The notes below the pieces were generated by a model, which saw nothing but the letters and a program-made list of their open reading frames with translations, searched no databases and was not told the origin of the DNA. Of a stretch of DNA of 64,000 bases, positions 16,090-64,000 are shown piece after piece (position 1 is the first letter of the stretch; the number at the start of each line of letters is the position of its first letter). The position numbers were made by a program, and so were the translations under genes. Source of the DNA: Escherichia phage myPSH1131; sequence record MG983840.1; one strand, written 5' to 3'.

Positions 16090-17142
16090 ATGTCTTTATT
16101 TGGAAAATCAGCTTCTAGCAAAACCACAGTGGCTCCTTCCTCTCAGGTTGATGCCCTGCTGAAGCAGATTGTTGCTAATGCTCAGAATATGCAGAACAAC
16201 GATCAGGGTTTTATTTCCCAACAGCTGGCTGGGTTCAATGGCAACCAACAAGGTGCTCTGAATAACTTAGCAGCTTCCACAACTCAAAAACAATTGGCTA
16301 ATATGTACACACCTCGTACACAGCAAGGATTGGACCAACTAAATGCTCTTGCCCAACAGTATCAGAATATTGTTAATAGTGGTGGAGTGACGGCTGAAGG
16401 GGTTAATAACTTTAGTAAAGGTTTGAATAACTCAGCTCTTGCACAAGCTACTAGCAAAGCAGCTTCTAATGTCTCTCTTGGTAATGGCTCTGACTCTGGC
16501 TCTCTCCGTAGGGCTGCGGCTCAAGGGGCTGCTTTGAATGGTGCTAACACTAACCTGTCTCGTACTATCAGTGGCAAGAATATGGGGATCAGTGCTCTTC
16601 AACAAGACCAAAACTTCCAGAGAGGCTTACTTGGTGCTCAGTCAGGGTTAGCTGGACAGAATCTCAATCTTGGTGCTCAAGGTGTTCAGGCAACTCAACA
16701 GGCTATTCAGAATCAGCTCATGGCTGGTAATTTACAACAGCAGCAAGCTCAGGCTCAAGCTGATATCAATTGGCAGAACGCTATTGGCTCTCAGCAGTAT
16801 GGATGGAATCAGCTTAACAACCAGCTTAATGTACTAAACAGTGTAAGTCCAATGGCTGGATACACAATTAAGAATGCTGCTCCGGGAGTTAATGTTGGAC
16901 AGCAGCTCCTAGGTGCTGGTATCACTGGATTAGGTATTGCAGGTCGTATGGGTGCTTTCTCTCCTAATCAACAGACTCAGAATGCTTGGAGTTCCTATAA
17001 CAACTCAGGTGGGCAATCTGGAATGGCTGGTCCTATGATTGGGGGTTCTAATCTTTCTCAACAGAGAGGTCAGTCTAACTGGTTATCCACAGCAGGTAGT
17101 AATATCTTAGGTGGTGTCTTAGGGGCATTTGGAGCAAACTAA
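16090..17142 (+). CDS. internal virion protein A (Q/N/G-rich)
   Basis: 350 aa, begins MSLFG; SD AAGGAGGA. A paralogous second copy is at 23310..24263. Confidence 0.4.
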   Translation: MSLFGKSASSKTTVAPSSQVDALLKQIVANAQNMQNNDQGFISQQLAGFNGNQQGALNNLAASTTQKQLANMYTPRTQQGLDQLNALAQQYQNIVNSGGVTAEGVNNFSKGLNNSALAQATSKAASNVSLGNGSDSGSLRRAAAQGAALNGANTNLSRTISGKNMGISALQQDQNFQRGLLGAQSGLAGQNLNLGAQGVQATQQAIQNQLMAGNLQQQQAQAQADINWQNAIGSQQYGWNQLNNQLNVLNSVSPMAGYTIKNAAPGVNVGQQLLGAGITGLGIAGRMGAFSPNQQTQNAWSSYNNSGGQSGMAGPMIGGSNLSQQRGQSNWLSTAGSNILGGVLGAFGAN

Positions 17143-17154
17143 AGGAGAATATCT

Positions 17155-18123
17155 ATGTCACTTTTTGGTGGAGGCGGAAGTAAAACTACTTCCCAAATGA
17201 TTCGTCCTGAATACATTCAACAGTATATTGACCAGCTTAATAAGCAGATTGGTAATACCAGTTCAGGGGATTATGTTTATCGAGATAATGTAGGGTTTAA
17301 TAATAACCAGACAGAGGCACTTAACAACTTAGCACAATCTGGTGCTCTAGGAACTCTCTCACAGCAGTATATGGATGCAGCAGGTCAAGGGTTAGGGTAT
17401 CTAGATAATGCCTATAAAGGCTATCAGAGCCTCTCTGGACAAGGTGGGATTACTGGAGAACAGATTGGTGCTCTCGCTGGTCAATTATATGATGATGACG
17501 CTGTGCAAGCAGCCATTACAGCTAATAATGAACAAGTTCAACAGAATCTAGCACGTAATGCTCTTCCTCAGTTAGCTCAGCAGTATGCTGGTCAGCAAGG
17601 TTCAGGTGCTCGTATGGCTAAATCTTTTGCCCAAGGTGATGCTCTGAATCAGATGCAAGGGCAAGCAACAGATATTACCAACAGTGCCTATAACTCGGCT
17701 ATTAGTCAAGCTGAAAGCATTCTCTCTGGTAATAGACAGAATCAGGCAGCTGCTCTCTCTGGTCTTTCTACTATTGGTTCTAACCTTTCTAACCTAGGTC
17801 AGCAGGGTGCTAATTTGTCTCAACAGCAAATGATGAATCAATGGAATGCAGGATTGCAGCAACAACAGCAACAACAGAATGAATATGATAATGCCTACCA
17901 GAATGCTCAGAACGCAGCTAATTGGGGATGGCAAGATATCAACAACCAACTCGGTGCAGCAGGTGTACTTAACGGTGCTCTCGGACAAACTACAACCACT
18001 AAAACCTCTGGTGGCAAAGGTGGTTTCCTTGGTGGAGCTATGAGTGGTTCAGCAGCAGGCTCTTCCTTTGGGCCTTGGGGTGCATTAGCTGGGGGTCTAA
18101 TCGGTGGGTTGGCTAGTACTTAA
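17155..18123 (+). CDS. internal virion protein B (Q/N/G-rich, paralog of A)
   Basis: 322 aa, begins MSLFGGGG; a second copy is at 24667..25635. Confidence 0.4.
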   Translation: MSLFGGGGSKTTSQMIRPEYIQQYIDQLNKQIGNTSSGDYVYRDNVGFNNNQTEALNNLAQSGALGTLSQQYMDAAGQGLGYLDNAYKGYQSLSGQGGITGEQIGALAGQLYDDDAVQAAITANNEQVQQNLARNALPQLAQQYAGQQGSGARMAKSFAQGDALNQMQGQATDITNSAYNSAISQAESILSGNRQNQAAALSGLSTIGSNLSNLGQQGANLSQQQMMNQWNAGLQQQQQQQNEYDNAYQNAQNAANWGWQDINNQLGAAGVLNGALGQTTTTKTSGGKGGFLGGAMSGSAAGSSFGPWGALAGGLIGGLAST

Positions 18124-18136
18124 TTAGGAGATAAAT

Positions 18137-19786
18137 ATGCAACAGACAACTTACGCTCAGGTCAGAAGTCGTGACCCGAGAAATACTTTCTATGGTGTTA
18201 ATCCGGGAGCGGCTTCGGCCTCTCCTTATATGGCTAGACCCGTTCAGACAGCAGATATTTCTATGTATCAACGACCTGCTGTACCTGCTGGGTTATCTGC
18301 TCTTGTAGGTCAAACTTCAGTTGATTATCAGAATATGTTGAATCCTGTTCAGAGTAATGGTCTTCCTTCTGACATTCCGAATGATGTACAACCTCAATCA
18401 CAACAGGCTGTAACTCTTCCTGAGTTTGAGAACCAAGAAACCATGCAAGCTGCTGGACTTTCTCCTTCTGCTATTCCTCAAGAATCAGAACCTCTTCCGG
18501 TAACACCTCCTACTAAACCGCTAGAAGCTGGTCCTATGGAGTTTACTCCTTCTCAGGTAGAACAGGCACAAGGTGTGATTAACACTCTTGCTCAAGGACA
18601 AGACACTGGTGATGGAATGGCTGCTGCTACTCGTGCTAAAGATCAAGAGCGTGTTAACAACGATATCTTGCAAGTTGCGAAAGCTAAAGACCCTTCAGAA
18701 GCTTGGAACAAACTACAGAAAGAACCATTCTATCAGAACTCTAGTTTCTATACAGGTTTGATGGGTGTAGGTCTTTCCATTATGTCAGGTAAGTCTCCTA
18801 TTGAAGCTTTCCAGATTGGTCAGGGAATGGCTAATCAGGATGAGACTAAGAAGCAACTGGAAGCTAACCGTGATGCCTTGATTGAACAAGGCTTCTCTCA
18901 AGACTCGATCGCAGCTGCTATTGCTAACGGAGACCCGTCTCTACTGAAGATGAGAGCTGTAGACCCTGCTCAGAAAGAAGCGCTGTATGCTGCTCGTGAA
19001 GAACGACAAAATGCTGAATGGGATAGACGTCAACAGATTCAAGAGCAAACTATGCGTGAGCGTGCTGATGAAACTCGTCGTGCCGCTGAAGAAAGAGCTA
19101 ACATGAACTTTGAACGTCAGAAAGAGTTGATTGGTTATCGTGATAAGGTTAAGGCTGAACGTGCTGAACAAGCTGCTCAGAGTTTTAACTTTAACCCGAA
19201 AGAAGTTCGTCTTGCTCAGAATACAGCTGAAGGTACGGTTGCTAAGCAGTGGGCAGAGAAAGGTGGCCTGTTTAACCAGTCTAACAAAGACTTGGATTTG
19301 GCTGATAAAGCTGTTAAGGATAAAGACTATCAGACAGCTCGTTCTGCTTACATGCAGGCTATCATGAACTCTGCAAGGGCTGAAATCGGTGCTACTCGTT
19401 CTCTTACCGAAGAAGACTTAGGGCACTTTGCAGAAGACCCATCAATCTTCGTTCGTGTTGGCAACAAGTTTGCACTGAAATCTGGATGGCGTCCTACTGA
19501 TTCTGCTCTTGCTTATGCTCGTAAGCAAGCTAACGTTGGTCACACCTCTGCAATGAAAGGTGTTGCTGATGCTAAGAGAGCTACGATTGAAGCTTACATC
19601 GGTTCTGGTATGGATAAGAAGAGAGCTACTGCATTGGTTAACCGTGCAATCCCTTCTGGTGGTTTCTATGACCCTCTAGGTGTTTTCTCTGAACAAGCAG
19701 AAGAAGCAGTTGGTGGTGCAGTAACCAATCCTAAGCTTAATGGTGCTTTATCAGCTGTCGAAGACACTAGCTGGTTCACTCAATAA
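18137..19786 (+). CDS. internal virion protein C
   Basis: 549 aa; a truncated second copy is at 25649..26482. Confidence 0.4.
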   Translation: MQQTTYAQVRSRDPRNTFYGVNPGAASASPYMARPVQTADISMYQRPAVPAGLSALVGQTSVDYQNMLNPVQSNGLPSDIPNDVQPQSQQAVTLPEFENQETMQAAGLSPSAIPQESEPLPVTPPTKPLEAGPMEFTPSQVEQAQGVINTLAQGQDTGDGMAAATRAKDQERVNNDILQVAKAKDPSEAWNKLQKEPFYQNSSFYTGLMGVGLSIMSGKSPIEAFQIGQGMANQDETKKQLEANRDALIEQGFSQDSIAAAIANGDPSLLKMRAVDPAQKEALYAAREERQNAEWDRRQQIQEQTMRERADETRRAAEERANMNFERQKELIGYRDKVKAERAEQAAQSFNFNPKEVRLAQNTAEGTVAKQWAEKGGLFNQSNKDLDLADKAVKDKDYQTARSAYMQAIMNSARAEIGATRSLTEEDLGHFAEDPSIFVRVGNKFALKSGWRPTDSALAYARKQANVGHTSAMKGVADAKRATIEAYIGSGMDKKRATALVNRAIPSGGFYDPLGVFSEQAEEAVGGAVTNPKLNGALSAVEDTSWFTQ

Positions 19787-24275: not shown

Positions 24276-24665
24276 ATGAGTATGGAGTCTAAAGGATATA
24301 AAGACCCTGCCAAATACGAAGCTTATCTTGAAAGACAGAGAGATTATAAGAGACGTAAAAGGGTCGAGGGTGACCCTTGGTATGATCCTGAAAAAGTGAG
24401 AGCTAAGAATCTCCAAAAGATGTATGGGATATCTCATGAAGAATATGAGAAAATGTGGGAAGAACAAGAAGGGCTTTGCAAGATCTGTGGTAATCCAGAG
24501 AGTGTTAAACTTAAAGGTGTGGTTAAGCTACTAGCTGTAGATCATTGTCATTTATCTGGCAAGGTTCGTGGTCTTCTTTGTAATAACTGCAACAGAGCGA
24601 TAGGTATGCTTAAGGATGACCCTGAGATACTTCGTCGTGCTGCTAGCTATTTAGAGGAGATATAA
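24276..24665 (+). CDS. HNH homing endonuclease (free-standing)
   Basis: HNH motif DHCHLSGKVRGLLCNNCN. It lies between the A and B paralogs, which are directly adjacent in the first copy. Confidence 0.75.
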   Translation: MSMESKGYKDPAKYEAYLERQRDYKRRKRVEGDPWYDPEKVRAKNLQKMYGISHEEYEKMWEEQEGLCKICGNPESVKLKGVVKLLAVDHCHLSGKVRGLLCNNCNRAIGMLKDDPEILRRAASYLEEI

Positions 24666-24666
24666 T

Positions 24667-25635
24667 ATGTCGCTTTTCGGAGGCGGGGGTAGTAAAACTA
24701 CTTCCCAAATGATTCGCCCTGAATACATTCAACAGTATATTGACCAGCTTAACCAACAGATTGGTAATACTAGTTCAGGGGATTATGTTTATCGGGACAA
24801 CGTAGGATTTAATAATAACCAAACAGAGGCACTTAATAACTTAGCACAATCTGGCGCTTTAGGCACTCTCTCACAGCAATACATGGATGCAGCAGGTCAA
24901 GGGTTAGGTTATCTGGATAATGCCTATAAAGGCTATCAGAGCCTCTCTGGACAAGGTGGGATTACTGGAGAACAGATTGGTGCTCTCGCTGGTCAACTGT
25001 ATGATGATGACGCTGTGCAAGCAGCCATTACAGCTAATAATGAACAGGTTCAACAGAACTTGGCACGTAATGCTCTTCCTCAGTTGGCTCAACAGTTTGC
25101 CGGTCAACAAGGTTCAGGTGCTCGTATGGCTAAGTCTTTTGCCCAAGGTGATGCTCTGAATCAGATGCAAGGGCAAGCAACAGATATTACCAATAGTGCA
25201 TATAACTCGGCTATCAGCCAAGCTGAAAGCATCCTCTCTGGTAATAGACAGAATCAGGCAGCTGCTCTCTCTGGTCTTTCTAATATTGGTTCTAACCTTT
25301 CTAACCTAGGTCAGCAGGGTGCTAATTTGTCTCAACAGCAAATAATGAATCAATGGAATGCAGGGTTGCAGCAACAACAGCAACAACAGAATGAATATGA
25401 TAATGCCTACCAGAATGCTCAGAACGCAGCTAATTGGGGATGGCAAGATATCAATAACCAACTCGGTGCAGCAGGTGTACTTAACGGTGCTCTCGGACAA
25501 ACTACAACTACTAAAACATCTGGTGGCAAAGGTGGTTTCCTTGGTGGAGCTATGAGTGGTGCAGCAGCTGGCTCTTCCTTTGGACCTTGGGGTGCATTAG
25601 CTGGGGGTGTAATCGGTGGGTTGGCTAGTACTTAA
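24667..25635 (+). CDS. second copy of protein B
   Basis: 322 aa, about 97% aa identity to B; SD GAGGAGA. Confidence 0.4.
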   Translation: MSLFGGGGSKTTSQMIRPEYIQQYIDQLNQQIGNTSSGDYVYRDNVGFNNNQTEALNNLAQSGALGTLSQQYMDAAGQGLGYLDNAYKGYQSLSGQGGITGEQIGALAGQLYDDDAVQAAITANNEQVQQNLARNALPQLAQQFAGQQGSGARMAKSFAQGDALNQMQGQATDITNSAYNSAISQAESILSGNRQNQAAALSGLSNIGSNLSNLGQQGANLSQQQIMNQWNAGLQQQQQQQNEYDNAYQNAQNAANWGWQDINNQLGAAGVLNGALGQTTTTKTSGGKGGFLGGAMSGAAAGSSFGPWGALAGGVIGGLAST

Positions 25636-25648
25636 TTAGGAGATAAAT

Positions 25649-26482
25649 ATGCAACAGACAACTTACGCTCAGGTCAGAAGTCGTGACCCGAGAAATACTT
25701 TCTATGGTGTTAATCCGGGAGCGGCTTCGGCCTCTCCTTATATGGCTAGACCAACTCAGACAGCAGATATTTCTATGTATCAACGTCCTGCTATACCTGC
25801 TGGGCTTTCCTCTCTTATAGGTCAAACTTCAGTAGATTATCAGAATATGTTGAATCCTGTTCAGAGTAATGGTCTTCCTTCTGATATCCCAAATGATGTA
25901 CAACCTCAAGCACAACAGGCTGTAACTCTTCCTGAGTTTGAGAATCAAGAAACCATGCAAGCTGCTGGACTTTCCCCTTCTTCTATTCCTCCAGAATCAG
26001 AACCTCTTCCGGTAACACCTCCTACTAAACCGTTAGAAGCTGGTCCTATGGAGTTTACTCCTTCTCAGGTGGAACAGGCACAAGGTGTGATTAATACTCT
26101 TGCTCAAGGACAAGATACTGGTGATGGAATGGCTGCTGCCACTCGTGCTAAAGATCAGGAACGTGTTAACAACGATATATTGCAAGTTGCGAAAGCTAAA
26201 GACCCTTCGGAAGCTTGGAACAAACTACAGAAAGAACCATTCTACCAAAACTCCAGTTTCTACACAGGTTTGATGGGTGTAGGTCTTTCCATTATGTCAG
26301 GTAAGTCTCCTATTGAAGCTTTCCAGATTGGTCAGGGAATGGCTAATCAAGATGAGACTAAGAAGCAACTGGAAGCTAACCGTGCGTCATACATCCCAAT
26401 TCTCTTCAGAAGTCTGGATGTTCATCTTCAAAGCATCCTGAGATGCCTCCATAGAACCAATCCGATTTACTTCCAAGGATAA
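25649..26482 (+). pseudogene. second copy of protein C, 3'-truncated at a junction
   Basis: Matches C for about 245 aa, then diverges after LEANR at about 26385 into unrelated sequence. Confidence 0.5.
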
Positions 26483-26676
26483 CAACTTCTTCATTCATAT
26501 ACCCTCCTAGATTGTGTTTATAAAATTAGTAAGTTTCTCTTCACTTTCATCAAAAGCTTTTCCAGCTGCTTCCATCTCCCAAGTATCGGCATTGTCAATA
26601 AAGCTCTGAGCTTCTAATAGGTCGTGGATTAAGTCGAAGAGTTTATTTTTATCTGCTTGTGTGATCATGTCAGTTC

Positions 26677-27489: not shown

Positions 27490-28332
27490 TTACCAAGATT
27501 TATCTAACCATGTCCAGTCGAACAGGTCTTCCGGAGTCTGACCAACAAAGAGCAGCCGAGCATTCTCAAGCATCTTCTCTTCATCTTCAGTATCGAACTT
27601 CTTATAATATTCCATTCGTACTATATGATACATGGTCCATCTATCTGTAACACCAGCCAACAGACTAGCTGCTGCTTTCTTCCCTATTCCTTGACGTCGA
27701 AGCTGAAGCTTACCACCCCACATAACCTCTTTACGTTCCCCACATCCGGGGATGTTATCCGTACCATCTCCAATCAACATTTGATAGAAGAAGTTTTGCC
27801 ATGAAACTAAATCAGATACGTAATGAGGAGGGACTTCTTTCTGTCTTTCTCCACAAGCCCAGCGATAATGCCATCCGGGAGTTATCAACAAATCCTTGTC
27901 TCTAGTACAGATGATAGTATTCTTATCCCTACGTTGCCTTTCAGCTAGTGCATCATCAGCCTCTCTCCCAAAGACCTCAATGTATTCGTACTTGGCTTTA
28001 ATGTAATCACCAACGTTTTGCCAGTGAAAAGGTCTTTCTCCGGGAGGTCTGTTTGCCTTGTAGTCTTGTTGCTTAGCAACATCGAAACGGAAGTTACCGC
28101 CTTCGCTGAAGTAGAATACAACCTTACTACAACCCGAGCGAGCTATAATTGTATCAATCTTGTACTGAAGTCGTTCAATCATGAAATTGTAATCAACTGG
28201 AACACGTCCTGTGTCAAGGAAGGGATGCTCCTGAGTAAGAGCACCCACTTCATACCGAAGAACGTCAGCGTCCACTATAGCAACTTCAGGGAGCTTAACT
28301 TCTTCCATAAATATCATCCTGAGCTTGAGCAA
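27490..28332 (-). CDS. 5'-3' exonuclease / flap endonuclease (FEN family)
   Basis: GDGTDNIPGCG and the helix-3-turn-helix GIGKKAAASLLAG; acidic PIN-like N-terminal region. Confidence 0.7.
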   Translation of the reverse strand: MLKLRMIFMEEVKLPEVAIVDADVLRYEVGALTQEHPFLDTGRVPVDYNFMIERLQYKIDTIIARSGCSKVVFYFSEGGNFRFDVAKQQDYKANRPPGERPFHWQNVGDYIKAKYEYIEVFGREADDALAERQRRDKNTIICTRDKDLLITPGWHYRWACGERQKEVPPHYVSDLVSWQNFFYQMLIGDGTDNIPGCGERKEVMWGGKLQLRRQGIGKKAAASLLAGVTDRWTMYHIVRMEYYKKFDTEDEEKMLENARLLFVGQTPEDLFDWTWLDKSW

Positions 28333-29184
28333 TAATCCAATCTAGGTCTGATACTGCTGATTCAATAGTTGAGTCATTAAACAGTAGATATGTTTTTCTC
28401 TGTTCGCCTTCAATATACGAGCGAGAATCTCTATCAAAAGAACAACCATCTCTAAGAACTTGGACAACTTGGACATTGAAATTCTTTTCTAGTTCTCGTA
28501 CCTCTGCATCAAAGCCTCCGTCAGTGAAAACAATAATGTCGTCCTGACCCAGCCCTTCTTGTTTGATGCTCTCTACAGCAAGATTCCCCATATGGTTGTT
28601 GCCAAACATAGGTTTTAAGAAGTCTTCACTTGTAGAAATCATCAAATCTCTTACAGACTTCCCTCCCCATTCTGGTCTAGGCTTTTCTTTCCATTCACGA
28701 TCTTCATAGAGTGCTAGAAAGTTTTCTAGAGGCATACCCAATGCAGCAGCAGCTACATTATACATCGGCTCCTTGAAAGACTTGGTTGAATATCCATGAT
28801 GGTATGAGTGTGCATTTACCCAAGCACTAGCTATCGTATCTTTACCACAACCCGGAGGCCCATTAAGAATTACCACTAAAGGTTTATATTGGGAGCATTC
28901 CACCATATTAGTCAGTGCTGGATTGCCTTGAGATTCCATTTCTAATTGCTCCGTGTGGTCATGTGAGTAGTCTACTGGAGAAGTTTTGTTACCAGTAACT
29001 TTAGGTAAAATCGCTCTAGTTGTTTCTACGTATTTACCGCCATCAATATTGATTTGAAACTCTACAAGCTCATTCTGTAACTCATATCCTGATAAGTTGG
29101 ATAGCTCCTCCAACTCATCTCTGACGAAATTTAAATGTTTGATTTTAATTGCAAGAGCTTTCTTTAAAGCTTTTACCTCTTCAT

Positions 29185-29194
<10 letters not shown>
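28295..29194 (-). CDS. P-loop kinase, dNMP-kinase-like
   Basis: Walker A ILNGPPGCGKDT; the GKDT form is shared with T4-type dNMP kinases. Coiled-coil N-terminus. Confidence 0.45.
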
Positions 29195-30478
<1,284 letters not shown>

Positions 30479-30770: not shown

Positions 30771-31517
30771 TCAGAAAGGCGAATCGTTATCATCTTCATA
30801 AGTAGAAGCAGGCTCTTTATCAATCGTAGGAATTGAAGGAGTAGCTTCTTTCTGTTCTGTTTCAGAAGCACGAGTAATTTCACGACCAGCCAGAGGCATG
30901 TTCTTAGCGTCATTAGCTTGAGTAAGCAGATTGCGCTGGAACGGGAACATCAGTTGATAAGATGCTACGTTCTCGTCGGTTTCAGCATACGGTTCGAAGA
31001 ATACCAGAGGACTACGAGCTTCACCAACTGCTGCACGATATTTAGTTGGGATTGGAGAAATGGTCTTGATGGAGTTTTTAACTTCACCAGCTTTGTTAGT
31101 GTAAGAGTTAACCAGAATGTTAACAGGCTGACCTAACAGAACATCCTTGAACCAAGACAGATCACCTTTCAGTGCTTGAATACTTGGGTCAACCATCTTG
31201 CAAAGATCAAGAATACCAGAGTTCTTAGCTCGTGGGTTTACATCATAGCTCTTGAACTGGCAAGCCGGACGTGGTTCTAATGCCTTACCATCGGAATCTT
31301 TACCAGTAGCATCAACACCAATCAGCTCGAAAGCTAAATCCATACGGAAAGCCGGATTCTTAGGAGTTACTGCTTTGGTCTTCGGGTCAATCCAAGGGTC
31401 ACGATTGTGAACACCCAAACCTACTACACGAACGATACGTGCTTCGTATTCACCATCAGGGATTACATCGTAGTTGGATTTACGGGAAGAAGTTGCGATA
31501 GTTGGAATCATAGACAT
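30771..31517 (-). CDS. ssb: single-stranded DNA-binding protein
   Basis: 248 aa with an acidic C-terminal tail ending EDDNDSPF, as in SSB interaction tails. Confidence 0.5.
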   Translation of the reverse strand: MSMIPTIATSSRKSNYDVIPDGEYEARIVRVVGLGVHNRDPWIDPKTKAVTPKNPAFRMDLAFELIGVDATGKDSDGKALEPRPACQFKSYDVNPRAKNSGILDLCKMVDPSIQALKGDLSWFKDVLLGQPVNILVNSYTNKAGEVKNSIKTISPIPTKYRAAVGEARSPLVFFEPYAETDENVASYQLMFPFQRNLLTQANDAKNMPLAGREITRASETEQKEATPSIPTIDKEPASTYEDDNDSPF

Positions 31518-31576
31518 AGTGTAATTTCCTTATTTAATTTGAAAGATTGTTGCTCTCTTTGAGCGGTTATGTATAA

Positions 31577-31585
31577 TATACATTA
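31577..31585 (-). promoter_or_regulatory. TAATGTATA promoter motif (minus strand), upstream of ssb
   Basis: Plus strand shows TATACATTA; about 60 nt upstream of the SSB start. Confidence 0.45.
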
Positions 31586-31768
31586 CATATATAGTGTAGG
31601 AACTACCGGAAGGTAGTAGGTTTTGTCCAAACAAAAGTCTCTTTAGAATTATTTGTTGGAGATTGTCTCTTATAAACCCGAGACTGCCTAGCAGTTACAT
31701 AAGCTCTAGCTTTTTCTGTAGCTGCATACTTATGGTTAAATTTCATGGTAGTATATCTCTAAGTGCTA

Positions 31769-31777
31769 TAATGTATA
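31769..31777 (+). promoter_or_regulatory. TAATGTATA promoter motif with no annotated downstream ORF
   Basis: Exact motif on the plus strand inside a ~560 bp non-coding interval. Confidence 0.35.
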
Positions 31778-31899
31778 TAAGTTATAGCTGATAAAGTTAT
31801 TGCACGGGACTGACGACGATAAGGCGCAGACGACAATCTCTCATAAGTTTGTAAGAAATTGAGAGACTACCGGAAGGGCAGGAGCCACCTGCGAGATAA

Positions 31900-31965
31900 A
31901 AATAGAGAATTAAGGAATCCTTGATTTAGGTTGTAGGGACTCCTAGGGACTTTGATTCTCTATTT
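31900..31965. repeat. structured element: 11-bp perfect inverted repeat flanking internal palindromes
   Basis: AAATAGAGAAT ... ATTCTCTATTT separated by 44 nt; inside are AAGGAATCCTT and TAGGGACTCC TAGGGACTTT. Confidence 0.5.
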
Positions 31966-32079
31966 AAAAGAATATTAATTACTTATTACCTAAATAATTA
32001 ACTAACTTACTTAAACCAAATTCAATAAGAATAGATAAAAAGATTATTCCTAAGAAAGCTAAAAAGTAAAGGATATAAG

Positions 32080-32244
32080 TTACCATTCAAGTAAACCTTT
32101 AAAGTTAGATTTTTCTACTATCCTCTGATAACGAAGATTAGAATCAGCTTGTTTCTTTAACATCTCATTATACTGATCTCTGATAGAGTCTTTATGTACT
32201 ACAGGTTCTTTAAATAACGAGATCTTGTTCTTTTCTTCTTTCAT
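32080..32244 (-). CDS. hypothetical protein
   Basis: Track ORF trimmed to an internal ATG (MKEEKNK...). Confidence 0.25.
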   Translation of the reverse strand: MKEEKNKISLFKEPVVHKDSIRDQYNEMLKKQADSNLRYQRIVEKSNFKGLLEW

Positions 32245-32713
32245 CAAAGACCTTCCTAATCTCTTGCAGAGAAACAGCTTTATAGTTAATTTGCTCCATT
32301 GATGTACAGAAATATCTCCAATCATCAATTACGTGGTTATGAGTATGAGCATAAATATTAAACTTCCCTCTCATCTCATCAGTGTGAATAGGAATATGAG
32401 TTACCCAAAACTCTTTATATTTATAATCACCAGAGATTCTACGGAAGACTTTCATCATATCAGGGAGAAGTTCTAACCTGTCATGGTTCCCTAAGACTAG
32501 ATGCTTCTCTCCTCTTACTTCAGCGATGATATCAAGGGCATACTTTTCAAACACCCAATCACCGGTAAAGAAGATTTTATCACGTTTAGTTACATGATCA
32601 AATGCAGCTAGGATTGCTTTGTCATGTTCTTCGATGGTTTTAAATTGCTTACGAAAACTACAGATGTTGCGATGGCCTAAGTGACCATCCCCTGCAAAAT
32701 AAACTTCAGCCAT
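32210..32713 (-). CDS. metallophosphoesterase (calcineurin-like)
   Basis: GDGHLGH and GNHD metal-binding motifs. Confidence 0.6.
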   Translation of the reverse strand: MAEVYFAGDGHLGHRNICSFRKQFKTIEEHDKAILAAFDHVTKRDKIFFTGDWVFEKYALDIIAEVRGEKHLVLGNHDRLELLPDMMKVFRRISGDYKYKEFWVTHIPIHTDEMRGKFNIYAHTHNHVIDDWRYFCTSMEQINYKAVSLQEIRKVFDERRKEQDLVI

Positions 32714-33285: not shown

Positions 33286-34008
33286 TTACCAAGATTTATC
33301 TAACCATGTCCAGTCGAACAGGTCTTCCGGAGTCTGACCAACAAAGAGCAGCCGAGCATTCTCGAGCATCTTCTCTTCATCTTCAGTATCGAACTTCTTA
33401 TAATATTCCATTCGTACTATATGATACATGGTCCACTTATCTGTAACACCAGCTAGTAATTTAGCTGCTGCCTTCTTCCCTATTCCTTGGCGTCGAAGCT
33501 GAAGCTTACCGCCCCACATAACTTCTTTACGTTCCCCACATCCGAACAGGTCTTCCGGAGTCTTATGAACGATAATCAAATTTACCCATTATAATCCTTA
33601 TTACCAAGATTTATCTTCAGCTAGTGCATCATCAGCTTCTCTCCCAAAGACCTCAATGTATTCGTACTTGGCTTTAATGTAATCACCAACGTTTTGCCAG
33701 TGAAAAGGTCTTTCTCCGGGAGGTCTGTTTGCCTTGTAGTCTTGTTGCTTAGCAACATCGAAACGGAAGTTACCACCTTCGCTGAAGTAGAATACAACTT
33801 TACTACAACCCGATCGAGCTATGATTGTATCAATCTTGTACTGAAGTCGTTCAATCATGAAATTGTAATCAACTGGAACACGTCCTGTGTCAAGGAAGGG
33901 ATGCTCCTGAGTAAGAGCACCAACTTCATACCGAAGAACGTCAGCGTCCACTATAGCAACTTCAGGGAGCTTAACCTCTTCCATAAATATCATCCTGAGC
34001 TTGAGCAA
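33286..34008 (-). pseudogene. FEN exonuclease copy 2, broken into two fragments
   Basis: Fragments of 135 aa and 97 aa correspond to the N- and C-terminal parts of 27490..28332; the central part is missing. Confidence 0.5.
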
Positions 34009-34870
34009 TAATCCAATCTAGATCTGATACTGCTGATTCGATGGTTGAGTCATTAAACAGTAGATATGTTTTTCTCTGCTCTCCTTCAATATATGAGCGA
34101 GAGTCTCCATCAAAAGAGCAACCGTCTCTAAGAACTTGGACAACTTGGACATGGAAATTCTTTTCTAGTTCTCGTACCTCTGCATCAAAACCTCCGTCAG
34201 TAAACATGACAATATCATCCTGACCTAACCCTTCTTGTTTGATGCTTTTTACAGCAAGATTTCCCATATGGTTGTTGCCAAACATGGGTTTTAAGAAGTC
34301 TTCACTTGTAGAAATCATCAAATCTCTTACAGACTTCCCTCCCCATTCTGGTCTAGGTTTTTCTTTCCATTCACGGTCTTCATAGCGTGCTAGAAAGTTT
34401 TCTAGAGGTATGCCTAGTGCAGCAGCAGCTACCTTGTACATTGGCTCCTTGAAGGATTTGGTTGAATAATTGTGATGGTATGAATGGGCATTGACCCAAG
34501 CATTGGCTATCGTATCTTTACCACAACCCGGAGGCCCATTAAGAATTACTACTAAAGGCTTATAATGGGAATCTCCCACCATGTTGGTCAGTGCTGGATT
34601 GCCTTGAGATTCCATTTCTAATTGCTCCGTGTGGTCATGTGAGTAGTCTACTGGAGAAGTTTTGTTACCAGTAACTTTAGGTAAAATCGCTCTAGTTGTT
34701 TCTACGTATTTACCGCCATCAATATTGATTTGAAACTCTACAAGCTCATTCTGTAACTCATATCCTGATAAGTTGGATAGCTCCTCCAACTCATCTCTGA
34801 CGAAATTTAAATGTTTGATTTTAATTGCAAGAGCTTTCTTTAAAGCTTTTACCTCTTCATTCATTCCCAC
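33971..34870 (-). CDS. P-loop kinase copy 2
   Basis: 299 aa, about 96% aa identity to 28295..29194. Confidence 0.4.
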   Translation of the reverse strand: MGMNEEVKALKKALAIKIKHLNFVRDELEELSNLSGYELQNELVEFQINIDGGKYVETTRAILPKVTGNKTSPVDYSHDHTEQLEMESQGNPALTNMVGDSHYKPLVVILNGPPGCGKDTIANAWVNAHSYHHNYSTKSFKEPMYKVAAAALGIPLENFLARYEDREWKEKPRPEWGGKSVRDLMISTSEDFLKPMFGNNHMGNLAVKSIKQEGLGQDDIVMFTDGGFDAEVRELEKNFHVQVVQVLRDGCSFDGDSRSYIEGEQRKTYLLFNDSTIESAVSDLDWIIAQAQDDIYGRG

Positions 34871-35250
34871 TGAAGTCGTTCAATCATGAAATTGTAATCA
34901 ACTGCCTCCTGTGTCAGGTGAGTAAGAGCACCTACTTCATACCGAAGAACGTCAGCGTCAGCGTCCATAGTCGAACAGGTCTTCCGGAGTCTGACCAACA
35001 AAGAGCAGCCGAGCATTCTCAAGCATCTTCTCTTCATCTTCAGTATCGAACTTCTTATAATATTCCATTCGTACTATATGATACATGGTCCACTTATCTG
35101 TAACATCAGCTAGTAATTTAGCTGCTGCCTTCTTCCCTATACCTTGACGTCGAAGCTGAAGTTTACCACCCCACATAACCTCTTTACGTTCCCCACATCC
35201 GTAAAGTTAGATTGTTCAAGCGAAGATTAGAATCTTTCTTTAACATCTCA

Positions 35251-35667
35251 TTATATTACTACAGGTTCTTTAAATTCAGCTAGTGCATCATCAGCCTCTC
35301 TCCCAAATACATCTATGTATTCATATTTACCTTTAATATAATCACCAACATTTTGCCAGTGAAAAGGTCTCTCTCCGGGAGGTCTATTTGCTTTATAGTC
35401 TTGCTGCTTAGCAACATCAAAACGGAAGTTACCACCTTCGCTGAAGTAGAACACAACCTTGCTGCAACCTGAGCGAGCAATGATTGTATCTATCTTGTAC
35501 TGAAGTCGTTCAATCATGAAATTGTAATCAACTGGAACACGTCCTGTGTCAAGAAAGGGATGCTCCTGAGTAAGAGCACCCACTTCATATCGAAGAACGT
35601 CAGCATCCACTATAGCAACTTCAGGGAGCTTAACTTCTTCCATAAATATCATCCTGAGCTTGTGCAA
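35251..35667 (-). pseudogene. FEN exonuclease copy 3, N-terminal fragment
   Basis: 138 aa matching FEN residues 1-130, then a junction. Confidence 0.45.
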
Positions 35668-36425
35668 TAATCCAATCTAGATCTGATACTGCTGATTCAA
35701 TAGTTGAGTCATTAAACAGTAGATATGTTTTTCTCTGTTCGCCTTCAATATATGAGCGAGAGTCTCCATCAAAAGAGCAACCATCTCTAAGAACTTGGAC
35801 AACTTGGACATGGAAATTCTTTTCTAGTTCTCGTACCTCTGCATCAAAACCTCCGTCAGTAAACACGACAATATCATCCTGACCTAGCCCTTCTTGTTTG
35901 ATGCTTTTTACAGCAAGATCCCCCATATGATTGTTGCCAAATATAGGTTTTAAGAAGTCTTCACTTGTAGAAATCATCAAATCTCTTACAGACTTCCCTC
36001 CCCATTCTGGTCTAGGTTTTTCTTTCCATTCACGGTCTTCATAGCGTGCTAGAAAGTTTTCTAGAGGTATGCCTAGTGCAGCAGCAGCTACCTTGTACAT
36101 TGGCTCCTTGAAGGATTTGGTTGAATAATTGTGATGGTATGAATGGGCATTAACCCAAGCATTGGCTATCGTATCTTTACCACAACCCGGAGGCCCATTA
36201 AGAATTACTACTAAAGGCTTATAGTGGGAATCTCCCACCATATTGGTCAGTGCTGGATTGCCTTGAGATTCCATTTCTAATTGCTCCGTGTGGTCATGTG
36301 AGTAATCTACTGGAGAAGTTTTGTTACCAGTAACTTTAGGTAAAATCGCTCTAGTTGTTTCTACGTACCTACCGCCATCAACATTGATTTGAAACTCTAC
36401 AAGTTCATTCTGTAATTCATACCCT
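35630..36425 (-). pseudogene. P-loop kinase copy 3, lacking start and N-terminus
   Basis: Frame is open upstream of the track start back to a junction near 36425; no in-frame start codon. Confidence 0.4.
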
Positions 36426-36561
36426 GATAAGTTGGATAGCTCCCTGTCTGCTGTATTTAACTATTTACTTTAGCTTCAAGTGTTTCGAAATCCTTTAGAC
36501 AAGAAGAACCCGAACAGTTCAATACTCAAGTCAAATCTAAACCATCAGTGTGAACCCAAAT

Positions 36562-36724: not shown

Positions 36725-37135
36725 TCATCGAATCACCAAAGGCTCTTCAGAGTACACAGGAGCGGCTATTTCTACAGGAGGTGCTGCCCTAAGGTCATTA
36801 AGTCTTACGCCCTTCAGCATACCGTCTAGGTGGTCCTTTTTGGGGATTCCAACAGGGAAGTCATCAATCCAGATATCGACGAAGAAGCCTAACTGTCGAC
36901 ACACCTCATCCTTCTGCACACCATTACAAAAGATGACAGGGATTTGCAGGGTCTCTGCATCATAGAGGATATCCACGTTATCATAACCATTAGGCTCTGA
37001 GAAACGGAAAGTCACGAATCTTACATCATGTCCATACCCTTTCATCAATCCTATCACATCTCTCCACAGTCGTCTGTCTGCTGTGTAAGTGTCATCATAA
37101 TCTAAACCAATATTCATGTCAAACCCTTTAGACAA
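36725..37135 (-). CDS. HAD-family phosphatase, 5'-nucleotidase-like
   Basis: HAD motif I DxDxT in NIGLDYDDTYT. Confidence 0.4.
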   Translation of the reverse strand: MSKGFDMNIGLDYDDTYTADRRLWRDVIGLMKGYGHDVRFVTFRFSEPNGYDNVDILYDAETLQIPVIFCNGVQKDEVCRQLGFFVDIWIDDFPVGIPKKDHLDGMLKGVRLNDLRAAPPVEIAAPVYSEEPLVIR

Positions 37136-45476: not shown

Positions 45477-45962
45477 TTAACTCTCCAAAGTTTTCTTCAG
45501 AGCTGCCCATGAGATTGGGTAGAGCTTAGCCATCTCTTCATCTACGGATTTAGCAAACACTCGAACTTCATATTGAGCGTGAGATGAGAGTCGCTGACGA
45601 CACAACTCAAACCAGCCATACAAAGAACCAGTCCACACCCACTCAGTGATCATCCCCTGAGGAAGAACAAATCGAGCTTGCTCTGGTGCAATAAATTCAA
45701 TCAACTTGTCATATGTTGCTAGAGAAGCTTCATATGCATCGTTAATCAACATTAATGCTTCAGCTCGTTCTCCGTCGATGAGTTGAATCCCTGAACCTGC
45801 ATGGAGGTCCGAAGGTCTCGCAAAAATCTCTTTAGGGATGAAGACTTCAACTGCTCCATCTTTATACCGCCGGGACATTTCGTTCCACGAGAATCCAACC
45901 TGATGCTTGCCCAGCTGTCTCGCAATTGCGATAGGTGCTTTGCATCGGAAACTGACTTGTAT
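45477..45962 (-). pseudogene. thyX: flavin-dependent thymidylate synthase ThyX, lacking N-terminus and start
   Basis: RFVLPQGMITEWVWTGSLYGWFELCRQRLSSHAQYEVR aligns with the ThyX core I recall from T. maritima. The frame is open upstream to 45962 with no start, and the RHR motif position reads GKHQ. Confidence 0.6.
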
Positions 45963-45972
45963 CTACTACCAA

Positions 45973-47540: not shown

Positions 47541-48914
47541 TTAGTTATTTGTTTCCATGTCAAAAGAGATTCCACGACCCGCTTCATCGGCAAACCGAAC
47601 TGTACGGGTTTGAGGTTCTAATACTTCAGGGTTGTTAGCAATAAAGCGATCAGCGAGACTGCGGCTGACAGCCTCAGCGAGTTCCTCATGAGAAGGAGTA
47701 TCAAGATCGGAGAGACTGCCTACCACATCTTGGGCCACACCTTCATCAGTCCACACAGCCCTAACAGGTGCGTTGATATCACCAACAGCAAAACCCTGAC
47801 CAGAGAACTGACGTGCGCTAACAGTTAAGCCATTTGGTCGACCACGAGAGGGTCTAGCCATCCATCGCTCCATAGAATCACTTGTAACACCAAGAGCTTC
47901 TTCAAAAGATGTTCTACGAGTAGTAGGTCTTATTCTTCGTGACTCTTGTGCTCGACGCATTGCAGGGGCTACAAACACCCCTTCAATTGCATTGTGTCGG
48001 TTAGGTTCTTCTTCCCGACCAAGTAGGTCGCCACCCGTGTTGGTTGTTAAGTTTGTCAACCCTTCAGACCAATACGCACTAATCTGACTAGATCCATGAA
48101 CACTTGACATTAACTGGATTTCTTCATAAGGGATTCCAAATAATCGACTCATGTCACGATTAACACAATACTGAGCACTTGTTGTATCCTCAATAAGAGC
48201 AACCTGACCTCGTTCGTTGACCAGATGATTAATCGGTTGAGGTGTGGGAAGATATCGAGTTTGGGCCATGTATTGATGTGCAGCTGCTGGAGAGGAAAAT
48301 CTCAACACTTGCGAGTTAGGCCACTTCTTGTGAACATACCTGATTTCACGATTAGAAACAACCACTGGACAAGGAGCGGTCATAGCCAAATATCCGTGAG
48401 AGGTCATGAATAAGTTGTCAAGAGTCATCGCACCACGGCACATCATAGGAAAATTATCCAATACCTCTTCAATAGAAGTAGGATAATTAAACATGAATTG
48501 GATACGAACCCCATCCCACTGAAACTCAATAATATCAGTGAATGTTAATTGAGAACTCCCAGCATAGGATTCGTTTGTAGCTTCAGCAAGAAGGGATGCA
48601 TATTCAATATCTTGTGACTCTAACCATTCCTTCACATTACTTTCAATCTCTCTTCCAAGAGCTTGCCAACGATCAGTTGGGACGAAAGTATTTTGAGTTC
48701 TTGGTGTTTGTCCTCTGACAATAAAGATATCAATGTCATGTGGAGCTGTGTTATTAAGCACAGCATCACGAACAGCCCCACCAGTAATGATGGGACAGAT
48801 ACCGTCTGGAACTAAATTGTTGTTAATCAACTGTTCAATGAAGTGACGACCAACAGTGATATCAGGTTGTTGAGCAACCTTATCTTCAATTTGGTTAATC
48901 GGGATAACAATCAT
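47541..48914 (-). CDS. Pol-beta-superfamily nucleotidyltransferase, CCA-adding / poly(A)-polymerase-like
   Basis: Head-domain motif ITGGAVRDAVLNN...HDIDIF. Start moved to MIVIPINQ, 1 nt after the upstream ORF stop. Confidence 0.55.
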   Translation of the reverse strand: MIVIPINQIEDKVAQQPDITVGRHFIEQLINNNLVPDGICPIITGGAVRDAVLNNTAPHDIDIFIVRGQTPRTQNTFVPTDRWQALGREIESNVKEWLESQDIEYASLLAEATNESYAGSSQLTFTDIIEFQWDGVRIQFMFNYPTSIEEVLDNFPMMCRGAMTLDNLFMTSHGYLAMTAPCPVVVSNREIRYVHKKWPNSQVLRFSSPAAAHQYMAQTRYLPTPQPINHLVNERGQVALIEDTTSAQYCVNRDMSRLFGIPYEEIQLMSSVHGSSQISAYWSEGLTNLTTNTGGDLLGREEEPNRHNAIEGVFVAPAMRRAQESRRIRPTTRRTSFEEALGVTSDSMERWMARPSRGRPNGLTVSARQFSGQGFAVGDINAPVRAVWTDEGVAQDVVGSLSDLDTPSHEELAEAVSRSLADRFIANNPEVLEPQTRTVRFADEAGRGISFDMETNN

Positions 48915-48915
48915 T

Positions 48916-49410
48916 TTACATTTTCCAATATAATGAAGGTGGGTCGTAAGGGTCAAATCCCGTGAGTTCACACAAGAAAAGATAAACCTTAACAGTTAAG
49001 TTAACGTCCTGTTCACAATAAGTAAACATATCTTCAGTGAAAGCATCCCATGCTTCCTCTTGCTCACCATAATCGCCCTTAAGTTCTCCTAAGAACTCAC
49101 CCCACTGCTTCAAACCATGACCCCTTGGGCCACGTCTAGGGTCGCCTTTCGGATACTCAGGACTGTCACCAATACGGTCAGGTTTAAGATATCGACTAAG
49201 ACATAAAGTGTCGAAGACGTTAAAACGATAGTTAATCAGATTGGGATACATCTTCTTCAGAGCACAAAGGTCGAAGTCAATAATATTGTGACCCACCAGT
49301 ACATCTGCTTCTGTAAGTTTACGAATCCCATCTTCAATTTGGTGAGGCCGATAGCCCCACCTTTCACCAGTTTCAACATCGAAGATATAAATACACCATA
49401 CTAAAGTGCA
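48916..49410 (-). pseudogene. family A DNA polymerase 3'-5' exonuclease domain, N-terminus disrupted
   Basis: Exo motifs [14 protein letters not shown] and YCEQDV. A second Exo-I-like stretch FAFDIES lies in another frame, and there is no clean start codon. Confidence 0.55.
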
Positions 49411-62760: not shown

Positions 62761-63285
62761 CGATACCACGTTGCTTAAACGTACGTTGTCCTCTTGGAGA
62801 CGTGTATGCCGAAGTCGTTGCGTCGATGAAAAATCAATATCGTTTTGCGTAAACATGCCTACCACTGCAAACGCAGGGCAGAAATTGCTACGGTAACGAT
62901 GGTAGCCTGAACACTTGAACAACATCTTTTCATAGAAGGTCCAAGCGAGAATGGTTTTCTTGAGGATATTACTATCAGCATCCCTCATATCCATATGAAC
63001 GTGAGTAGAGCAACGCCAAGTCCCCTCGGCGTGCGATTCAGCTACTGCTTCACTCAGGTTGTTGATAGCGTCTAACAACTCCTGTCCATTGTAAGGTCGT
63101 GAACATACCATTTCACAACCATTACGCAGGGAACCATCCTCTGTACAATCCCACATATCTGCTTCGATATGATCGGAACCTTCGAGTTCAAGTTCAATAC
63201 CGACGCCGCACTGAAGTGCAATTGAACTATGCGCCTCAGTTAAACGACCTTCTCGATATCCAAAAGTTTGCGCTACAGTTGTCAT
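62752..63285 (-). pseudogene. amidoligase copy 2 (C-terminally truncated)
   Basis: Identical to 61120..61905 for about 140 aa, then diverges after CPAFAVV. Confidence 0.4.
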
Positions 63286-63899
63286 AACGAATCCACCAAC
63301 GTAATATTATAATTGCTAAGGTTTTCAGAAATGTGATGAAAGTGTTCCAGAAGTCGCATCGGTTGCTGACCGTAAGAGTCACGAGGTGCTTCCAGACCTA
63401 CTTGCCCTACCAGTGCACCTTTATAATGCACCTTACCATCAGTAGGGTTGATGTAAATATAACGAGTAACCAATCCCTCGAATTCAGGATTGAACAGACT
63501 GTAAACCATCTCCCCGGAGATAGCACGACCAACACCCGGAGCATTTCGAATCTTGTTACCCATCAAACCCTTTGCTCTCTGACGAACAGGGTTAATATGA
63601 GTCCAGCTTACAGTGTTACCGTTATGGAACAGATAACCAACATCAGGTGATTCAAGAATCAAGGTTGGGTCGAACACTGGAATATTCATCGTAGTGTTTC
63701 GAAGGTGCCCTTGCTCATTCTTGTACCACTGCTCTACAACAAAATACAGAGCCTGCTCTGCTTCGTGAGAGAAGTCATCGCTGCGGAAGTTACCGCTCTG
63801 CTCAACACCAATCACAAAACATGGAAGGTTGATATTACCTGCTCGTTTAGCAATCCATGTACCATTATAGTAATGAGAAAAATCAGCTACTAAGCTCAC
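63282..63899 (-). CDS. hypothetical protein P, copy 2
   Basis: 205 aa, about 93% aa identity to 61902..62519. Confidence 0.35.
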   Translation of the reverse strand: MSLVADFSHYYNGTWIAKRAGNINLPCFVIGVEQSGNFRSDDFSHEAEQALYFVVEQWYKNEQGHLRNTTMNIPVFDPTLILESPDVGYLFHNGNTVSWTHINPVRQRAKGLMGNKIRNAPGVGRAISGEMVYSLFNPEFEGLVTRYIYINPTDGKVHYKGALVGQVGLEAPRDSYGQQPMRLLEHFHHISENLSNYNITLVDSL

Positions 63900-63908
63900 G
63901 ATAACCTC

Positions 63909-64000
63909 TTATGCTACCTGAAGGAGTTTGATCTGCTGGTCAGCTTCTTTAACGTTGTTCCCGTTAATGATTTCATGAAGCTTCTCAATCGGAAGGCGAG
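63909..64000 (-). CDS. gene W, 3' end (5' part lies beyond the window)
   Basis: Bases 63901-64000 are identical to 62521-62620. Confidence 0.3.
   Translation of the reverse strand, partial: RLPIEKLHEIINGNNVKEADQQIKLLQVA

Follow-up and report, generated by a model that had tools for sequence, protein, structure and literature searches.

A candidate non-coding RNA gene with a predicted gp36 promoter in phiEco32-like coliphages

Introduction

Small non-coding RNAs are known from several phages, with the OOP RNA of lambda and the band C and band D RNAs of T4 as examples. Promoters without a gene are known from phage replication. In T7, gene-less promoters serve replication, and the primary origin consists of phi1.1A/B and an AT-rich region. 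In the T4 origins ori(uvsY) and ori(34), a middle promoter is joined to an unwinding element.

The phage phiEco32 is a model for the takeover of host transcription by a phage sigma factor (gp36) and its co-factor (gp79). Gp36 recognizes the promoter element tAATGTAtA, with the transcription start 6-8 nt downstream (PMC8948821). A cryo-EM study from 2025 showed that gp36 also requires critical contacts in the -35 region, namely G at -37 and A at -34 (PMC12276001). Six gp36 promoters have been published: P6, P13, P26, P40, P58, and P68 (PMC8948821, text and Table S3; PMC4281155, Table S2). In this accepted map, all six are located before protein genes, and a seventh would add a new player.

Here, we analyzed a 64,000-nt stretch of DNA from Escherichia phage myPSH1131 (MG983840.1); this whole stretch is referred to as the window. 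A preliminary description had pointed to an orphan promoter motif and a highly structured element in a non-coding gap near 31.9 kb, for which a small RNA gene, an origin of replication, or a packaging site were offered as explanations. We consider it probable that this gap contains an unannotated non-coding RNA gene of phiEco32-like phages, driven by a gp36 promoter. If true, a conserved, folded phage RNA would be under the control of a phage-encoded sigma factor. This would add a new RNA family to the phage-encoded small RNAs, a kind of system already known, in a well-studied group of phages. The element is present in every sequenced relative, several phage-therapy candidates included, yet it has never been annotated.

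Like OOP and the band C/D RNAs, the predicted RNA is short, has its own promoter and no ORF, is highly folded, and lies among protein genes. It would converge on the neighboring operon, as OOP does on cII. Unlike these RNAs, it would be driven by a phage sigma factor, has no clear U-tract terminator, and carries an exchangeable hairpin module beside an invariant 100-nt core. No kinship to described RNAs was found by sequence or in Rfam. The locus also resembles the T7 and T4 origins in its non-coding, phage-specific promoter, the AT-rich DNA beyond it, and its position in a region of replication genes. It differs from them in that ~180 nt of structured, covarying RNA would be encoded between the promoter and the AT-rich DNA, and the latter is not conserved.

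Results

Sequence comparison identified the window as a phiEco32-like coliphage (Kuravirus). The region 31400-32300 was 100% identical to Escherichia phage myPSH2311 (MG976803; 901 bases compared), 99.9% identical to ES17, and 95-99% identical to most other matched Kuravirus-like phages, including phiEco32 and SU10. The gap is flanked by the homologues of phiEco32 gene 40 (30771-31517, minus strand) and gene 41 (31979-32086, minus strand), and every gene of the window to the right of ~26.6 kb is carried by the minus strand. The gap had been described as 560 bp of non-coding DNA. It is indeed present, but the interval between the annotated genes is 461 bp (31518-31978), and a length of ~560 bp is obtained only when the 35-aa ORF at 31979-32086 is ignored. 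This ORF, the gene 41 homologue, codes for a hydrophobic peptide that matches phrog_24970 (E = 6e-26), and it is convergent with the predicted RNA. Its stop codon is located 13 nt from P3, the last hairpin of this RNA. Gene 41 is absent in 8 of 24 relatives (ECBP2, TH43, StefiGeyer, OliverMaurmann, Paul, AnnaHegner, EK010, and XT32), and all eight retain the RNA element. The gene 40 product, gp40, is predicted by fold comparison to have an OB fold like that of SSB proteins and a conserved DDDxPF tail at its C-terminus; in most records this gene is labelled "hypothetical". It is driven by the known middle promoter P40 (-10 element at 31577-31585, minus strand), which is divergent from the orphan promoter.

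The gap also contains a lineage-specific insertion of ~150 bp (31598-31746). Among the aligned sequences, only myPSH2311, SDYTW1, and IMGVR_3300045988 have this insertion; ES17 is 99.9% identical to the window across it. A 47-aa basic ORF lies within the insertion (31603-31746, minus strand) and gave no match in PHROG or Pfam. P40, like the orphan promoter, has GGTAG at the -35 positions, and in the insertion-bearing lineage this element is provided by the terminal hairpin of the insertion, ACTACCGGAAGGTAGT. The repeat of CTACCGGAAGG noted previously is accounted for in this way, as the copy inside the insertion supplies the P40 -35 element. The two copies of ACTACCGGAAGG were found at 31602 and 31866, in agreement with the preliminary description.

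Several features of the window concern the source record as a whole. Between 16184 and 64000, there are many internal duplicated blocks of 0.1-1.7 kb with 88-96% identity, and two short blocks with 100% identity. Examples of duplicate pairs are 17140-18872 and 24652-26384, 47705-49035 and 52058-53385, and 61480-62620 and 62860-64000; 27940-29195, 33616-34871, and 35275-36443 form a threefold duplicate. The layout of these blocks differs from the gene order in other Kuraviruses. Together, the duplicated blocks and the unusual gene order suggest that the record is a chimeric assembly of two related phages. At 45960-45971 (minus strand), an exact P68-type -35 block, TGGTAGTAGATA, is present without the following AATGTATA element. 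Judging from this arrangement, the P68 promoter seems to be broken in the window, possibly by an assembly junction. Kuravirus-like phages have been reported with one tRNA-Arg (PMC9965538). ARAGORN found no tRNA or tmRNA in positions 1-64000 of the window, and the tRNA-Arg may be encoded beyond the window or be absent from this assembly.

The orphan promoter motif, TAATGTATA, was confirmed on the plus strand at 31769-31777, with no ORF downstream and all neighboring genes on the minus strand. It matches the gp36 -10 element at 9/9 positions and is invariant in 24 Kuravirus-like phages. The -35 element GGTAG (31747-31751, plus strand) places G at -37 and A at -34, exactly the positions contacted by gp36, and the longer block GGTAGTA is invariant in 24/24 phages. 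Thus, neither the promoter motif nor the -35 block shows any change in these 24 phages, which belong to Kuravirus, Suseptimavirus, and Nieuwekanaalvirus. The AATG[T/A]A core is retained in five more distant contigs, and the variants TAATGAATA and GAATGTATT, with one or two changes, were found in contigs whose SSB protein is 70-81% identical. The 14 nt that precede the orphan motif in SU10, TTGGTAGTAGATAT, match those of P68 exactly, and the spacer is 10 nt long at both sites.

The window contains five exact copies of TAATGTATA, all intergenic. The other four are located 20-40 nt before a ribosome-binding site and start codon. The position upstream of a middle or late gene, which is typical of gp36 promoters, is not found at the orphan site, as no plus-strand ORF follows it. 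The orphan promoter is not among the promoters listed in PMC8948821 (Table S3), PMC4281155 (Table S2), or PMC4331800. The search in PMC4331800 was limited to the gene-sense strand, that is, the strand of the downstream gene, which explains how the orphan site could be missed. On the basis of its sequence determinants, we concluded that the orphan site is very probably a genuine gp36 promoter, with a predicted +1 at 31784. It would be the seventh gp36 promoter, a near-twin of P68 and apparently as well formed as P68. With the gp36 promoters of phiEco32 it shares the -10 element, G-37/A-34, the intergenic location, the group-wide conservation, and the P68 upstream block. Unlike them, it has no downstream gene and is opposed to the local direction of transcription.

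The preliminary description had proposed RNA folding, a covariance-model search, and comparison with related phages as checks of this locus. The plus-strand transcript predicted to start at 31784 folded into four hairpins, with a length of 138-180 nt across phages and ~180 nt in the window. Past the +1, the plus strand contains no AUG and many stop codons. From 5′ to 3′, the RNA would consist of P1, UGCA, P2a, GAAGG, P2b, an A-rich linker, and P3.

The P1 hairpin (31784-31800, plus strand) begins exactly at the predicted +1. All nine P1 haplotypes form a hairpin from +1, and two of them have a wholly different stem (ACAUC/GAUGU and AUCUCU/AGAGGU). In 17 sequences with the B-type P2a module, double-sided changes were found in two of the six P1 pairs, and the covariation score of P1 in these sequences was higher than in all 500 shuffles and all slid controls. 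The commonest P1 haplotype, which has one G·U pair, folded with -2.9 kcal/mol on the plus strand compared to 0.0 kcal/mol on the minus strand. P1 is followed by the linker UGCA (31801-31804, plus strand), which is invariant in 27 distinct sequences.

P2a (31805-31872, plus strand) is a swappable hairpin module. At least four non-homologous versions of 33-68 nt exist (A, B, C, and A′); the window has type A, of 68 nt. The first and last bases of P2a pair in all 27 sequences, as C:G (n = 5), G:C (n = 18), or U:A (n = 4), and the next pair is G:C. Within type C, the sequences L042 and L047 differ at only two positions, which form the closing pair (C:G versus U:A). The four differences between L047 and L045 correspond to two internal pairs, C:G to G:C and U:A to C:G. 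All six differences within type C are therefore accounted for by three compensatory pairs. A 15-codon minus-strand ORF, read by eye in the A-type module, was considered as a small peptide gene and rejected: it lacks a ribosome-binding site, and most of the changes relative to ECBP2 are non-synonymous.

The purine linker GAAGG (31873-31877, plus strand), invariant in the alignments, connects P2a to the GC hairpin P2b (GCAGG-AGCCA-CCTGC; 31878-31892, plus strand). P2b is identical in 26 sequences. In L045, it reads GCTGG/CCAGC, which is a compensatory A:U to U:A change. A long-range helix, UUGCAGG/CCUGCGA, was proposed by RNAalifold. This helix is disfavored, as the L045 change would break it and is compensated within the local P2b. 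The next segment is the A-rich linker GAGATAAAAAT, the first seven bases of which (GAGATAA) occupy 31893-31899 (plus strand); it continues up to 31903, into the weak base of P3. It is invariant except in one phage that is short of one A.

P3 (31900-31965, plus strand) is an irregular 66-nt hairpin that corresponds to the inverted repeat noted previously. The perfect 11-bp repeat was verified at 31900-31910 and 31955-31965. It extends to 14/14 positions at 93% identity, and to 16 bp on the plus strand when G·U pairs are allowed. Also found as described were the palindrome AAGGAATCCTT inside it (31912-31922) and the direct repeat TAGGGACT at 31934 and 31944, with a start-to-start distance of 10 bases. 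Instead of separate protein sites, the repeats and the palindrome are more readily understood as segments of the long P3 hairpin. The fold energy of P3 was -23.5 kcal/mol on the plus strand versus -18.2 kcal/mol on the minus strand, and its outer stem pairs at 16/16 positions on the plus strand (two of them G·U) versus 14/16 on the minus strand. A lone A-to-G change in P3 of XT32 stays paired on the plus strand only. The plus-strand tail after P3, UU(U)AAAA, is variable and has just 2-4 U, so that termination there is doubtful. A scan with consensus terminators found no intrinsic terminator at P3 on either strand.

Overall, compensatory changes were demonstrated for P1, P2a, and P2b; P3 is invariant and therefore uninformative for covariation. 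The compensatory changes represent ~8-10 independent events and not dozens, because many of the sequences are close relatives and the modules recombine. The G·U pairs of P1, P2a, and P3 exist on the plus strand only and become A·C mismatches on the minus strand. Folding of the whole region did not favor the plus strand (z-scores of -2.9 on the plus and -3.8 on the minus strand).

The comparison with related phages showed that the block is conserved throughout the group. The core was found in 98/98 related records of the phage collection, with at least 91% identity over its full length. None of these 98 records contains a feature annotation for the element; with a longer query, a few show only the start of the adjacent gene. 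In phages and contigs in which the DNA of the SSB gene is 73-83% identical, positions 31872-31961 retain 91-100% identity to the window. In all comparisons, sequence conservation stops sharply at the 3′ arm of P3. An important function is indicated by the higher conservation of the core relative to the surrounding genes.

The invariance of P3 can be compared with another hairpin of the same gap. The SSB mRNA leader has a hairpin (GCUC-loop-GAGC; 31552-31564) a few bases past the P40 start. Upstream of the SSB gene in L042, L045, L047, and L049, this hairpin varies by compensation (GUUC...GAAC and GUCC...GGAC). As the leader hairpin drifts by compensation and P3 does not, the invariance of P3 indicates selection on sequence. 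By this comparison, P3, P2b, and the linkers are held constant in primary sequence, beyond mere pairing. With P3 and P2b near-invariant, covariation cannot test them, and a DNA-level site fits this invariance equally well.

The covariance-model search identified no described family: with the gathering score, Rfam gave no match in the whole window, and a permissive search of 31500-32100 gave a best E-value of 0.5, to unrelated families. Matches in E. coli genomes were limited to chance 21-mers (E = 7). A scan of IMG/VR with the core pattern returned nothing beyond the same known phages, and a scan of the JGI metagenomes with a single promoter-anchored pattern returned seven unrelated chance matches and no added diversity. 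No further copies of the core or of the repeats were found in the genome; an 11-mer match near 26650 is unrelated and lies within an overlapping minus-strand ORF. A comparison of the RNA with all translation start regions by RNAduplex gave unrealistically long duplexes and no clear outlier among possible targets. The literature search, which covered sources other than the primary phiEco32 transcription papers, found no report of a transcript.

The repeats themselves are unremarkable in number. A shuffled 64-kb window is expected to contain about one perfect 11-bp inverted repeat within 60 nt, so that such a repeat is by itself not significant. Likewise, the window shows no excess of TAATGTATA copies when up to one mismatch is allowed. 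The features were judged real because of their position and conservation, not because of repeat statistics.

Discussion

The determinants of the promoter, its conservation, and the plus-strand-specific covariation together support the reading of the locus as an RNA gene. Among the three explanations offered in the preliminary description, the small RNA gene is thus the one that gained support, from the gp36 promoter determinants, from three hairpins with compensatory changes, and from G·U pairs that form on the plus strand only. The packaging site is rejected, and the origin of replication is without positive support. Most likely, the orphan promoter makes a folded non-coding RNA of ~180 bases; its production, its 3′ end, and its role are what we infer from these features. 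Host RNA polymerase with gp36 would start at ~31784 and proceed rightward, against all neighboring genes. P1 would be a 5′-terminal hairpin of the type that shields the 5′ ends of transcripts against degradation, P2a a self-contained hairpin that phages exchange as a module, and P3 probably the 3′ end of the RNA. In P3 and P2b, primary sequence and not just pairing is conserved, which suggests that they are recognized by an unchanging partner, possibly a host factor. The function could lie in the control of the replication-gene operons, in the capture of a host factor, or in the initiation of replication.

P3 would also have a role for the opposite strand. Directly past P3, the minus strand reads UUUUUAUCUC with the invariant UUUUUAUCU, and the T-run corresponds to the plus-strand As at 31898-31902. 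In all phages, P3 is located 13-50 nt past the last leftward stop codon and is followed by the T-run, which makes it a reasonable terminator or 3′-end structure. Together with the minus-strand T5 run, P3 probably also ends the leftward gene 58-41 transcripts, just upstream of P40, as the terminator of the converging gene 41 operon. If P3 ends the leftward transcripts, the locus is a boundary of convergent transcription. Bidirectional intrinsic terminators likewise lie between convergent units, with an A-run and a T-rich tail on opposite sides of the hairpin. In contrast to them, P3 has a long, irregular, AU-rich stem that encloses an interior of 44 nt, and a very short plus-strand U-tract. Such a double role of P3 would add constraint but would leave the invariance of P2b and the linkers unexplained.

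A more specific version of the RNA gene, to which we give a clearly smaller chance, is a decoy or scaffold RNA under a phage sigma factor, in which P2b and P3 capture a host factor, or the structured primer of a new type of sigma-dependent replication origin. Candidates for the captured factor would be a CsrA-like GGA-binding regulator, the ribosome (via the Shine-Dalgarno-like AGGAG and AAGGAA), or an RNase, and the exchangeable P2a would tune the specificity. The 98-nt core (31868-31965) contains five GGA motifs (P = 0.023 by shuffling), several of which are predicted to be paired. These motifs recall CsrA-binding sponge RNAs and Shine-Dalgarno mimics; they include AGGAG, AAGGAA, and two AGGGACU repeats.

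The rival explanations differ from the RNA gene in what the promoter, the hairpins, and the invariant core would be for. In the main rival, a transcription-primed origin of the T7 or T4 oriF/oriG type, the product of the orphan promoter would be a primer or an R-loop RNA, and DNA synthesis would begin at or past P3, in the AT-rich stretch. A phage-specific promoter that has no gene, opposes the local gene direction, and forms a divergent pair with P40 would suit such an origin, as would the AT-rich stretch past P3 in every variant, the purine-rich tract GGAAGGGCAGGAG in the RNA, the adjoining SSB-like gene with a DNA polymerase nearby, and the universal, near-invariant element expected for an essential cis site. 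Nevertheless, we regard this origin as unlikely. There is no change of GC/AT skew at 31.9 kb (~-0.145 on both sides), although the skew in this region tracks the orientation of the genes. The AT-rich stretch is partly gene 41 coding sequence, is not conserved, and begins only after 180 nt, and the covarying stems with a 5′-protective hairpin fit a stable RNA better than a transient primer. The direct repeats are just two and short, and the SSB-like neighbor is no initiator. An iteron-type (lambda-like) origin, which calls for at least three initiator-binding repeats and an initiator gene at or beside the site, was rejected on the latter two grounds, as it would have only two 8-bp repeats next to an SSB-like gene. 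Gp40 itself was also rejected as a replication initiator: its NCBIfam "replication initiation" match reached 24 bits against a cut-off of 75, so that no initiator gene is present at the locus, and fold comparison gave an SSB-like OB fold with an SSB C-terminal tail. The single-sequence structure prediction of gp40 (pLDDT 36) was unusable. The packaging site (pac/cos) is contradicted by the mid-genome position of the core, at 36778-36877 of the 77,554-bp phiEco32 genome, i.e., ~36.8 kb into 77.5 kb; the SU10 genome paper analyzed terminal repeats and their variation at the genome ends (PMC4281155).

If the element instead acted only in cis on the leftward transcripts, P3 and the T-run would be a terminator, a 3′-end stabilizer, or an RNase III site, P2b and the rest would belong to the 3′UTR of the gene 58-41 operon, and TAATGTATA on the plus strand would either be silent or have an effect solely by polymerase collision or occlusion. 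On the minus strand, P3 has an invariant T5 run behind it and the plus-strand tail is variable, P3 lies 13-50 nt past a stop codon of the leftward operon in all phages, the minus strand folds well too (z = -3.8), and a terminator at P3 would explain the need for P40. We still find this reading improbable, because the commonest P1 haplotype is unfolded on the minus strand (0.0 kcal/mol), the G·U pairs of P1, P2a, and P3 turn into A·C mismatches there, and a full -35/-10 promoter is kept invariant, with P1 beginning exactly at its predicted +1. Moreover, the stem beside the T-run is AU-rich, the scan made no terminator call, and 100 nt of invariant sequence is more than a terminator requires. 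Another rival is a site that acts at the level of DNA, where the TAGGGACT repeats and the palindrome would be half-sites of a conserved DNA-binding protein of the phage or the host, or a conserved junction for homologous recombination between gene modules. A near-invariant 100-bp core between mosaic, swapped segments, breakpoints of module exchange at conserved blocks, and two metagenomic contigs that break within the gap agree with it. Both TAGGGACT copies also lose one G together in 8/24 relatives, and again in L045 and L049, but this joint loss may be one inherited event. The repeats and the core have no further genomic copy, and a DNA site does not account for the G·U pairs restricted to the plus strand, for the compensation seen in P1, P2a, and P2b, or for the register of promoter and P1; we therefore rate it as very unlikely. 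The least probable is an antitoxin-like antisense RNA against gene 41, with overlapping 3′ ends, which we hardly expect to be correct. Gene 41 and the RNA have the same convergent layout as the type I toxin-antitoxin systems par of pAD1 and txpA/RatA, the end of the small hydrophobic ORF is 13 nt away from P3, and the 3′ overlap would result from a bidirectional hairpin common to both. However, the eight of 24 phages without gene 41 all keep the RNA, and antisense pairing does not require an invariant sequence.

The non-coding RNA gene that we prefer has sharp boundaries and an exchangeable module, and would be convenient for studying the swapping of RNA domains between phages. Two independent metagenomic contigs, L046 (1-199) and L050 (1-203), end ~200 nt upstream of the SSB gene, just past the orphan promoter. 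Strain variation in the swappable module probably breaks these assemblies. The element is absent in relatives whose SSB protein is 46-69% identical. In the equivalent gap, these distant relatives have a different hairpin of ~47 nt that is rich in AGCU repeats (L021, 2355-2500; L044, 2356-2500; L053, 1354-1500; L052, 1317-1500).
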